Notes under the pieces: generated by a model
Databases searched by the model: none
The model's input: only the letters and a program-made list of their open reading frames with translations
Told to the model about the DNA's origin: nothing
Made by a program: the position numbers and the translations under genes
Part shown: piece by piece, positions 11,308 through 11,896 of the stretch
How the letters are laid out: every line of letters starts with the position of its first letter
How positions within the stretch are numbered: position 1 is the stretch's first letter
Virus record (IMG/VR): IMGVR_UViG_3300012281_000006
Source of the DNA: a virus
Lineage: Duplodnaviria; Heunggongvirae; Uroviricota; Caudoviricetes
Strand: one strand, 5' to 3'
DNA length: 18,129 nt

Positions 11308-11559
11308 TTAGTTACCGCTGATAGCGCGGTTGTAATCATTAACGTTGCGATTCTTCCTGTTAATCCCCATCAGCATCGTTTCTGTATCGAGGATATACGC
11401 TGGCAGATCATCAAAATATTCACTGCTAAACTCTGGCATCCTGCACATAAACGCACTTTTGGAGGCAGGGTGGTTAACCTTTGTCGGCGTCGGCGTTAAA
11501 TTCGCTGATCGACTCCCGGAGCAACCGCTGAGTGTCAGCAGGAATGCGCTGGCGAACAT
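11308..11559 (-). CDS. mlp: Small outer-membrane lipoprotein (Mlp); start set at the internal ATG that gives a signal peptide
   Basis: Lipobox LTLSG|C after hydrophobic MFASAFLL; serine at +2 after the Cys; Pro/Thr-rich mature part (TPTPTKVNHP); GGCGGG SD-like upstream of ATG 11559; overlaps the 3' end of ppfA in another frame; longest ORF extends to 11640. Confidence 0.55.
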   Translation of the reverse strand: MFASAFLLTLSGCSGSRSANLTPTPTKVNHPASKSAFMCRMPEFSSEYFDDLPAYILDTETMLMGINRKNRNVNDYNRAISGN

Positions 11560-11896
11560 TACCCGCCGCAACCAGTTGTTTCTGAACTTCTGCTTTTCGT
11601 TCCATTTGCCTGTCAGCATACTTGGCTTGTTCTGATTCATTTTTCACTTCCTGGCTGTGAAAATGTTGCTCTGCTTTGTTCATCGTCTCAATGGTCTGGT
11701 TAAGATCCATTATGGACTTATCACGTTCCTTAACAGCCTGATCAAGACTGCCAATTTTCTCCATGGCTTGCTTTAGCTGATGACGTTCCCATGCAAACCC
11801 AGCACCAACAAGTGCGCAAATCAGGACAAGAACACCAGTAACAGCAAGTTTCTCCTTCAAAGACAAAGCTGTTTTTAACGTTGAAAAAAACGACAT
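11474..11896 (-). CDS. ppfA: Membrane-anchored periplasmic coiled-coil protein, 140 aa (PpfA)
   Basis: N-terminal TM segment LAVTGVLVLICALVGAGFAW followed by a charged, helical-looking region rich in E/K/Q. Confidence 0.7.
   Translation of the reverse strand: MSFFSTLKTALSLKEKLAVTGVLVLICALVGAGFAWERHQLKQAMEKIGSLDQAVKERDKSIMDLNQTIETMNKAEQHFHSQEVKNESEQAKYADRQMERKAEVQKQLVAAGNVRQRIPADTQRLLRESISEFNADADKG

Follow-up and report, generated by a model that had tools for sequence, protein, structure and literature searches.

Spanins act at the last lysis step in Gram-negative hosts, and the overlapping genes ppfA and mlp raise the question of whether a P1-like phage-plasmid carries such a module beside its plasmid replicon. 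The DNA analysed here is a stretch of 18,129 nucleotides (hereafter the window) representing a P1-like phage-plasmid with 98% DNA identity to P1. The first-pass annotation had proposed for this pair the architecture of an overlapped two-component spanin, and our analysis supports that proposal through the predicted topology, the lipoprotein signal, the +1 overlap, a conserved cysteine and homology to P2 LysB/LysC. We consider it very probable that ppfA and mlp encode the two-component spanin of this P1-like phage-plasmid in the ‘overlapped’ arrangement, a function predicted from sequence. The reading gains its support because the architecture is conserved in relatives and because remote homology links the pair to P2 LysB/LysC.

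Both open reading frames of the pair are found on the minus strand (Table 1). As had been claimed, the start of mlp falls within the 3′ part of ppfA and in another frame; frame arithmetic places it at +1 relative to ppfA, with 167 nt in common. This shared segment encodes PpfA residues 86-140 and Mlp residues 1-55, the latter comprising the signal peptide, the lipobox and 15 residues at the start of the mature part. The mlp gene runs on for 166 nt past the end of ppfA, which assigns the pair to the ‘overlapped’ class of spanin gene arrangements; in two-component spanins the o-spanin gene is embedded in its i-spanin partner, overlaps it or directly adjoins it in the same orientation. The Shine-Dalgarno sequences of both genes agree with SpaninDB, in the case of ppfA with the listing for P1 gp064.

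Table 1. Features of the ppfA/mlp locus and its surroundings (window coordinates)
Feature	Position	Strand	Basis or remark
ppfA, predicted i-spanin, 140 aa	11474-11896	minus	ORF and translation
mlp, predicted o-spanin precursor, 110 aa	11308-11640	minus	ORF and translation
Dual-coding ppfA/mlp overlap, 167 nt	11474-11640	minus	frame arithmetic
Mlp lipobox codons L37-S38-G39-C40	11521-11532	minus	translation; kept in six lineages
mlp Shine-Dalgarno AGGAAG	11641-11652	minus	6 nt 5′ of ATG at 11640; upstream sequence ccaggaagtgaaaaATG
Possible secondary mlp start, in-frame TTG	11569-11571	minus	16 codons before lipobox Cys; uncertain
ppfA ribosome-binding region, AGGAGG 5 nt 5′ of ATG	11897-11912	minus	reverse complement cttcAGGAGGaagaaATG
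upfA	10904-11296		offset from P1 annotation
oriR	~10642-10883		offset from P1 annotation
repA	9725-10585		offset from P1 annotation
Terminator-like hairpin and T-run just 3′ of upfA	10869-10889	minus	consensus scan, pattern match only

PpfA had been described as one N-terminal transmembrane helix followed by a charged, coiled-coil-like domain, and this description agrees with hydropathy, composition, an AlphaFold2 model and a crude heptad count. Residues 17-35, LAVTGVLVLICALVGAGFA, form the sole strongly hydrophobic stretch of the protein (Kyte-Doolittle 2.48 over 19 residues), directly preceded by the basic residue K16. The rest of PpfA (104 residues) is 36% charged and contains one proline and no cysteine; outside its transmembrane domain (TMD), PpfA is free of cysteine, and it would hence offer no periplasmic Cys. 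The AlphaFold2 model (mean pLDDT 69.5) shows a helix over residues 13-110, a break or hinge at 111-119 and a further helix at 120-137, and the heptad count, which is not a dedicated predictor, finds residues ~28-75 compatible with a coiled coil. This helical domain of ~100 residues is predicted to be periplasmic. By hydropathy and AlphaFold2, PpfA has the form by which i-spanins are defined, namely one N-terminal TMD, type II topology and a mainly helical C-terminal domain.

The lipobox of Mlp reads L-S-G-C, its cysteine being Cys40, and positions +2 and +3 are Ser and Gly; both the lipobox and the +2 serine proposed earlier are confirmed and are conserved in six lineages. Because Ser and Gly occupy these positions, Mlp is without an Asp retention signal. 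The protein combines a lipoprotein signal, a lipobox Cys and the lack of Asp at +2, the features that define an o-spanin. Its signal peptide of 39 aa has a long basic n-region and is atypically long, carrying the SpaninDB flag ‘Too long signal sequence’; for P1 gp063, SpaninDB reports LipoP cleavage at position 39. The mature part of 71 aa contains one more cysteine, C66. The earlier description of this part as Pro/Thr-rich with a Cys holds for the cysteine and overstates the composition, which is only modestly enriched, with 5 Pro and 5 Thr in 71 residues, mostly within LTPTPTKVNHP. At least one periplasmic Cys, for homotypic disulfide-linked dimers, is present in 507 of 528 spanin systems (criteria of Summer 2007 / Kongari 2018), and in this pair Mlp Cys66 is the predicted periplasmic cysteine.

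Conservation of the arrangement was examined in relatives that included three distant full-length ones from a PpfA profile search. Five independent relatives keep the +1 ORF together with its start and lipobox, the +1 frame is open across 55-60 codons in six lineages, and the overlap among relatives measures 164-179 nt. The mlp Shine-Dalgarno sequence in the five relatives is AGGAGG, AGGAAG or GAGG at unchanged spacing, and the lipobox in all six lineages reads LSGC, LSAC, LNGC or LSSC, with Ser at +2 in every case. Relatives with no more than 26-31% PpfA identity still retain the +1 frame, the Shine-Dalgarno sequence with its ATG, the lipobox and the second Cys. Residues F33, L34, L35, L37, C40, S41, M65, C66 and P69 of Mlp are invariant in the six-lineage alignment. 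An mlp start outside the overlap and without a signal peptide, the outcome that would have spoken against the proposal, is contradicted by the Shine-Dalgarno sequence, ATG, hydrophobic region and lipobox conserved inside ppfA.

The nucleotide substitution pattern is in line with this conservation. Divergence amounts to 0.37-0.39 in the ppfA-only part versus 0.20-0.21 in the overlap, approximately half, and third positions of ppfA codons diverge by 0.51-0.55 outside the overlap but by 0.30-0.34 inside it. Codon periodicity changes to the mlp frame 3′ of ppfA. Judged from the aligned sequences, dual coding constrains the ppfA/mlp arrangement throughout the family. The PpfA family itself is narrow, since a PpfA profile HMM search of 1.84 billion representatives returned only 37 matches at E ≤ 1e-3; these are mostly fragments of the same family, together with long coiled-coil proteins.

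A remote counterpart of the pair is found in phage P2. Mlp aligns with the P2 o-spanin LysC by BLASTP (3e-7, 35% identity, 68 aa) across the lipobox, the TPxP segment and a C-x-M-P motif, and by hhalign (E 8.8e-6, probability 83%); Mlp Cys66 is aligned with a LysC cysteine. The PHROG matches of the two proteins are reciprocal: Mlp matches phrog_30284 at 3e-76 and phrog_456 at 7e-5, and LysC matches phrog_456 at 1.7e-31 and phrog_30284 at 5e-4. PpfA matches phrog_89, ‘Rz-like spanin’, at 8e-26, and P2 LysB falls in the same family at 5.8e-61, both matches covering nearly the whole protein length; the PpfA match is partly by construction, because P1 PpfA may itself be a phrog_89 member. The top NCBIfam match of PpfA is TIGR03495 phage_LysB (E 1e-3, 19.3 bits against a cut-off of 92.75), and Mlp scores 13.3 bits (E 0.07, cut-off 27) against NF038368 P2_Rz1, so that neither protein reaches its NCBIfam equivalog cut-off. 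Compared directly with the single P2 LysB sequence, PpfA gives no significant match by BLASTP or hhalign. On these comparisons, PpfA/Mlp and P2 LysB/LysC are distantly related. The dimensions of the two systems are similar, with 141 and 96 aa and a +1 overlap of 146 nt in P2 against 140 and 110 aa and 167 nt here. In contrast to the P2 pair, Mlp carries the 39-aa signal with its long basic n-region, and whereas P2 lysBC lies in the lysis cassette after holin and endolysin, the P1 pair stands apart and adjoins the replicon.

In a Pfam scan Mlp had no match and PpfA nothing beyond coiled-coil noise below threshold, with no Rz/Rz1 family (PF03245, PF06085), and neither protein matched the lambda-type PHROGs phrog_13 and phrog_3198. 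Homology of PpfA to lambda Rz was considered and rejected; the hhalign match, of 33% probability over a coiled-coil stretch, was treated as composition-driven. Lambda Rz/Rz1 has the same predicted topology, a type II helical inner-membrane protein and a small outer-membrane lipoprotein in the +1 frame, and the two systems presumably share a mechanism. They differ in architecture: lambda Rz1 is fully embedded and its mature form has 40 aa with 25% Pro, whereas Mlp is overlapped and its mature form has 71 aa with 7% Pro; lambda Rz has two periplasmic cysteines and PpfA none. T4 PseT.3/PseT.2 shows that spanin genes can lie apart from holin and endolysin, and likewise combines an i-spanin lacking a periplasmic Cys with a Cys-bearing o-spanin. 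The T4 genes, however, are separated, whereas ppfA and mlp overlap.

The pair in the window is the same as that of P1, with PpfA 98-99% identical and 98% DNA identity over the region. The Shine-Dalgarno sequences, the lengths of 140 and 110 aa, the 39-aa signal, the TLSG/C lipobox and the placement relative to upfA, upfB and repA all coincide. Mlp substitutions relative to the SpaninDB P1 sequence include, for example, A31, Q17 and S61 in place of V, L and P. Elsewhere, the window differs from reference P1 by a dmt indel and by a tRNA-Ser that replaces upl/plp, as in P7 and D6. The upl/plp genes at the right end of the window had been considered as a second spanin-like pair, a candidate that was dropped because a tRNA-Ser segment replaces this region in the window.

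Comparison with a curated spanin set shows that the assignment has already been made. SpaninDB (Kongari et al. 2018) lists P1 gp064/gp063 as an ‘overlapped’ (‘ovl’) OIS/OOS pair, and several GenBank/RefSeq records name the products Rz/Rz1 or ‘Rz-like spanin’. Bednarek 2022 credits the P1 spanin assignment to Summer et al. 2007 and gives it as predicted. A whole-word literature search for ‘ppfA’ yielded only unrelated acronyms among the matches listed. The idea that ppfA and mlp form a spanin pair is right, already known and catalogued. The first-pass annotation had set the genes apart from generic unknowns, a label that is out of date but not wrong for the original 2004 gene names.

The position of the pair beside the plasmid replicon is borne out by the upfA, oriR and repA offsets from the P1 annotation. 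Here ppfA and mlp share an operon with upfC, encoding a PAAR protein, and two unknowns, beside oriR, with no holin or endolysin gene adjacent and away from lyz, lydA and lydB of the P1 annotation. The hairpin in Table 1 is likely the 3′ end of an upfC-upfB-ppfA-mlp-upfA transcription unit. With the LP23 box of the P1 annotation as a query, the search for Lpa late promoters recovered LP23 alone, and the regions 5′ of upfC, upfB and ppfA gave no such box. The P1 annotation gives only weak predicted sigma-70 promoters for this operon, and a generic sigma-70 scan upstream of ppfA found nothing above shuffled expectation. The main text of two P1vir RNA-seq papers (PMC8201110; bioRxiv 10.64898/2025.12.28.696737) reports nothing on mlp or ppfA. 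Location in a lysis cassette is not obligatory for spanins, as T4 illustrates.

CRISPRi knock-down has been reported to give efficiencies of plating (EOP) of 0.24/0.19 for mlp and 1.3/1.2 for ppfA, and both genes were scored non-essential for plaques. In the same assay lambda R was under-called and the outcome for lambda Rz was mixed; knock-down is incomplete, and a plaque assay is a blunt readout. The observations counted against the spanin reading comprise these CRISPRi scores, the lack of a neighbouring holin or endolysin and of an Lpa box, PpfA without a periplasmic Cys, a PpfA-LysB relationship invisible to direct BLASTP and hhalign, NCBIfam scores below cut-off and the long Mlp signal.

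Several of these observations may also be read in other ways. The pair could be an envelope module of the prophage or plasmid state, expressed from sigma-70 promoters beside the replicon and not devoted to lysis, for example a lipoprotein for lysogenic conversion or superinfection exclusion together with a partner in the membrane, like lambda Bor or the Cor and Llp lipoproteins. Such a module would fit a site beside oriR/repA and far from lyz, lydA and lydB, an operon whose annotated promoters are all sigma-70 predictions and whose upstream regions gave no Lpa box, and plaques that still form after knock-down. We nevertheless regard it as improbable: the homologues LysB and LysC are residents of the P2 lysis cassette, the overlapped i-/o-spanin geometry is strictly conserved together with the invariant second Cys, and dispersed lysis genes are already known in P1 and T4. 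The PAAR spike-tip-like upfC in the same operon points to a lytic-cycle virion function, which likewise counts against an envelope module. Alternatively, the pair may be a degenerate or redundant spanin, a true LysB/LysC homologue that has become dispensable since P1 has another way of breaching the outer membrane. The non-essential CRISPRi scores of both genes, the PpfA periplasmic domain without Cys and the location outside any lysis cassette are consistent with this account. It appears very unlikely given the clear purifying selection on both frames across diverged P1-like elements, and an i-spanin with 0 Cys joined to a Cys-bearing o-spanin is a common SpaninDB combination; the limits of the CRISPRi plaque assay noted above also weaken its case.

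The overlap itself has been open to another interpretation, in which the real genes are ppfA and a short non-overlapping ORF of ~46 aa (ATG 11448, MCRMPEF...), with the +1 lipoprotein N-terminus an untranslated by-product, a view that automatic gene calling takes implicitly in relatives. Gene calls in related contigs give only ORFs of 46-52 aa 3′ of ppfA, most database Mlp entries are such truncated forms, and the Mlp signal peptide is unusually long. However, gene callers are biased against overlapped o-spanin genes, and the +1 frame is open in six lineages with Shine-Dalgarno sequence and ATG in place. Residues F33, L34, L35, L37, C40 and S41 remain invariant even at ~30% PpfA identity, divergence in the overlap is halved, and the LysC alignment crosses the lipobox. 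We consider an untranslated N-terminus extremely unlikely.

For the overlapped two-component spanin, a mode of action can be proposed by analogy with the model for lambda Rz/Rz1 (Berry 2008, 2012; Rajaure 2015; cited through Bednarek 2022). Mlp would be exported, lipidated at Cys40 and Lol-sorted to the inner leaflet of the outer membrane, and it would probably be dimeric via the invariant Cys66. It would bind the C-terminal part of PpfA, and the complex would thread the peptidoglycan mesh to bridge the periplasm. Once the wall has been degraded by LydA, the P1 holin, and Lyz, the SAR-endolysin, the PpfA-Mlp complex would collapse. This collapse may fuse the inner and outer membranes and thereby remove the last barrier to virion release.

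A further feature of mlp is the in-frame TTG codon within its signal sequence. Initiation there would yield a canonical 16-aa signal peptide, (M)RRVMFASAFLLTLSG, followed by the lipobox Cys, and the lipobox codons lie within ppfA for either candidate start codon. The same position is TTG in the window and in relative L007 and ATG in relatives L002-L004; in none of them does a Shine-Dalgarno sequence precede it. It is a long shot that P1-type o-spanins are produced from two in-frame starts, the Shine-Dalgarno-led ATG and this TTG/ATG, with the operon run from non-Lpa promoters adjacent to the replicon. If so, the first start would give a signal of 38-39 aa that includes the long basic n-region and the second would lie 16 codons before the lipobox Cys. 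Two Mlp forms of unequal export kinetics could then tune or delay spanin maturation, comparable to dual-start holin/antiholin pairs. Because the operon would be run from non-Lpa promoters, the spanin would also accumulate on another schedule than the remaining P1 lysis proteins.

The ppfA/mlp pair, read as an overlapped two-component spanin, presents nothing new in kind. Whether P1 lysis needs it, given its odd location and its non-essential CRISPRi score, is a question already flagged in the literature. In annotation, ppfA and mlp should be labelled i-spanin and o-spanin, and gene callers routinely cut mlp down to its non-overlapped tail. The location of the spanin matters for the engineering of P1, a workhorse both in transduction and as a phage-plasmid vector, and for the annotation of the many P1-like plasmids that bear resistance genes.

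The ppfA/mlp pair carries the predicted features of an overlapped two-component spanin, as the first-pass annotation had proposed, with PpfA as the putative inner-membrane partner (i-spanin) and Mlp as the putative outer-membrane lipoprotein partner (o-spanin). PpfA contains a single strongly hydrophobic stretch at residues 17-35 (Kyte-Doolittle 2.48 over 19 residues), and its remaining 104 residues are 36% charged, with 1 Pro and 0 Cys. AlphaFold2, run on a 13-sequence alignment, places a continuous helix at residues 13-110 and another at 120-137, separated by a break at 111-119 (AGNVRQRIP); the mean pLDDT was 69.5, so secondary structure alone was used. 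Hydropathy, composition and model agree with the earlier description of a 140-aa protein with one N-terminal transmembrane helix and a long charged, coiled-coil-like periplasmic domain. We speculate that the hinge between the long and short predicted helices could be a counterpart of the Rz linker.

The n-region of Mlp is basic (7 K/R in 27 residues) and is followed by a hydrophobic core (VMFASAFLLTL) and an L-S-G-C40 lipobox with Ser at +2 and Gly at +3. Its 71-aa mature part includes one further Cys (C66). The lipobox, its +2 Ser and the extra Cys are thus present in the translation as described, while the mature part, earlier called Pro/Thr-rich, is only mildly so, with 5/71 Pro and 5/71 Thr clustered in LTPTPTKVNHP. 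The mlp gene starts within the 3' end of ppfA in another frame (+1), as had been noted, overlapping it by 167 nt and extending 166 nt beyond its stop.

Features of the ppfA/mlp operon, with mlp calls in relatives (L002-L004, L007, L008)
Feature	Coordinates	Strand	Description
mlp	11308-11640	minus	110-aa ORF
ppfA	11474-11896	minus	140-aa ORF
upfB	11936-12781	minus	281 aa; hits limited to PHROG families of unknown function
upfC	12733-13017	minus	PAAR-motif protein; Pfam 1.1e-5 (just under cut-off), phrog_281 2.5e-30
Terminator-like hairpin and T-run	10869-10889	minus	8-bp stem, 5 GC pairs; 15 nt past upfA stop, at oriR edge
7-bp inverted repeat	13038-13061	minus	CTAAGTT ... AACTTAG, 10-nt A-rich spacer; ~20 nt upstream of upfC GTG
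In-frame codon 16 before lipobox Cys	11569-11571	minus	TTG here; TTG in L007; ATG in L002-L004
mlp tail as called in relatives	L002 4449-4589; L003 4431-4589; L004 4449-4589; L008 3467-3607		automatic gene calls

P1 is reportedly named in the Summer 2007 abstract among classic phages then without annotated Rz/Rz1 equivalents. The spanin assignment of ppfA/mlp is published and recorded in databases. SpaninDB lists "P1, NC_005856.1, ovl, OIS gp064, OOS gp063" (Kongari et al. 2018), with the same Shine-Dalgarno sequences as here, a 104-residue periplasmic domain with 0 Cys for the i-spanin, and a 39-aa signal, TLSG lipobox and 1 periplasmic Cys for the o-spanin, for which it remarks "Too long signal sequence" and "LipoP server finds cleavage site at 39th position". 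Bednarek et al. 2022 (PMC9025707) give the P1 spanin genes as ppfA and mlp, partially overlapping in an unlinked operon; in that article their assignment is a prediction from sequence-derived features, credited to Summer et al. 2007. The i- and o-spanin labels are swapped in its Introduction, the PpfA and Mlp sequences showing the reverse. In RefSeq, the mlp product of P1, P7, RCS47 and SJ46 is "Rz-like spanin", and other GenBank P1-like records name the pair "outer membrane lytic protein Rz" and "outer membrane lipoprotein Rz1". The observation is confirmed; the "ovl" listing, topology signals, conserved overlap and homology to P2 LysBC support its interpretation as a predicted spanin pair.

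Mlp had no Pfam match and PpfA had only coiled-coil matches below threshold, which places the pair outside the lambda Rz and Rz1 Pfam families. In PHROGs, PpfA belongs to phrog_89, "Rz-like spanin" (8e-26, nearly full length), and Mlp to phrog_30284 (3e-76), with a weaker match to phrog_456 (7e-5). P2 lysB/lysC and lambda Rz/Rz1, taken from genome records, were scanned in the same way. P2 LysB falls in phrog_89 (5.8e-61), and LysC falls in phrog_456 (1.7e-31) and also matches the Mlp family phrog_30284 (5e-4), whereas lambda Rz and Rz1 fall in phrog_13 and phrog_3198. BLASTP aligns Mlp with P2 LysC (3e-7, 35% over 68 aa) across the signal, lipobox, TPxP and C-x-M-P, and hhalign, run with the Mlp alignment, gives E 8.8e-6 with 83% probability; PpfA and P2 LysB have no similarity detectable by BLASTP or single-sequence hhalign. 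For PpfA and Mlp, NCBIfam ranks its LysB and LysC models first, yet with scores far under cut-offs. The geometry of P2 lysB/lysC (141 + 96 aa, 146-nt overlap) is almost that of ppfA/mlp. The PpfA family is narrow: 1.84 billion representatives yielded 37 matches at E <= 1e-3. We conclude that ppfA/mlp belongs, as a remote branch, to the P2 LysB/LysC overlapped spanin type, and that in this the predicted o-spanin is better supported than the predicted i-spanin.

The overlap was compared across three P1-like contigs (L002-L004, PpfA ~60% identical), a 92-94-kb element (L007/L008, 31%) and a short metagenomic contig (L009, 29%). In all of these relatives, no stop codon interrupts the +1 frame within the 164-179-nt overlap, the mlp ATG is preceded at Shine-Dalgarno distance by AGGAGG, AGGAAG or GAGG, and the Mlp signal is 38-39 aa long, ending LL(T/S)L-x-x-C followed by Ser. 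A six-lineage Mlp alignment has F33, L34, L35, L37, C40, S41, M65, C66, P69, D78, L79, Y82 and the C-terminal tail NxKNxxVNxYN invariant. Compared with the ~60% relatives, the overlap shows a nucleotide divergence of 0.20-0.21 and the ppfA-only part one of 0.37-0.39; at the third positions of ppfA codons, the second positions of mlp codons, divergence falls from 0.51-0.55 to 0.30-0.34 in the overlap, and past the ppfA end the mlp third position becomes the most variable. This pattern is the signature of two translated frames.

A start at the non-overlapping ATG 11448 is ruled out by this signature, and a true mlp start outside ppfA is contradicted by the conserved SD-ATG and lipobox as well. 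M8 and M28 of annotated Mlp are unlikely start codons since they are not conserved. Besides the conserved SD-ATG, in five of six lineages the lipobox Cys is preceded, at a distance of exactly 16 codons, by an in-frame start codon, which, if used, would yield a canonical short lipoprotein signal peptide. It lacks a Shine-Dalgarno sequence in each case, the upstream SD-ATG with its 38-39-aa signal being kept in 6/6 lineages, and may arise incidentally from the ppfA frame. Automatic callers annotate a non-overlapping mlp start in relatives, calling only a 46-52-aa tail, and most Mlp database entries are tail-only truncations; the o-spanin is therefore systematically mis-annotated.

Window positions 11000-12900 share 98% identity with phage P1 NC_005856 63046-64946, and likewise with RCS47, P7, SJ46 and further phage-plasmids of the P1 type; taken as a whole, 92% of the window aligns with P1 51161-70325, at 97.7% identity. 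The P1 minus-strand transcription order is upfC, upfB, ppfA, mlp, upfA, then oriR, repA, parA and parB, so the first-pass gene names are those of P1, with exactly corresponding coordinates. N runs occupy 480-527 (48 nt) and 9793-10054 (262 nt), the latter masking the middle of repA (9725-10585, minus), which is therefore listed as two broken ORFs. Within dmt, a bifunctional methyltransferase gene, 184 nt (15088-15271) replace ~430 nt of P1 (reference segment L001, 10089-10518), indicating a variable or deleted internal segment. At 17538-17868, a 331-nt segment substitutes for the upl/5'-plp segment of reference P1 and carries a third tRNA, tRNA-Ser(tga) (17687-17773), beside tRNA-Asn and tRNA-Thr; this variant is also present in P7 and D6.

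The operon partners of ppfA/mlp are UpfC and two unknowns, and the PAAR motif of UpfC places a probable tail-spike tip protein in the same operon as the spanins. In L002-L004, the upfA position holds an unrelated Gp49/Sf6 gp66-family gene (PF13876; e.g. L002 4600-4959), so the gene downstream of the pair is exchangeable. A search upstream of upfC, upfB and ppfA for the Lpa late-promoter box (AAGTNACTT, 4 nt, TANNNT) was negative; within the window, only LP23 (6575-6593) matches it in full, and a generic sigma-70 scan likewise gave nothing convincing. The P1 record has no annotated upfC promoter. The inverted repeat upstream of upfC may be due to chance; the upfC-to-upfA operon probably ends at the hairpin past upfA.

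In a genome-wide CRISPRi assay of plaque formation, mlp gave EOP values of 0.24/0.19 and ppfA 1.3/1.2, both genes being scored non-essential. This score counts against the predicted spanin role. In the same assay lambda R was scored non-essential and Rz values were discordant, and the authors caution about incomplete knock-down and polarity. By analogy with the lambda model, Mlp would receive its lipid at Cys40 and be delivered to the outer membrane, where it may dimerise via Cys66 and bind the C-terminal region of PpfA to form a periplasm-spanning complex. Once Lyz has degraded the murein, this complex would collapse and fuse the two membranes.
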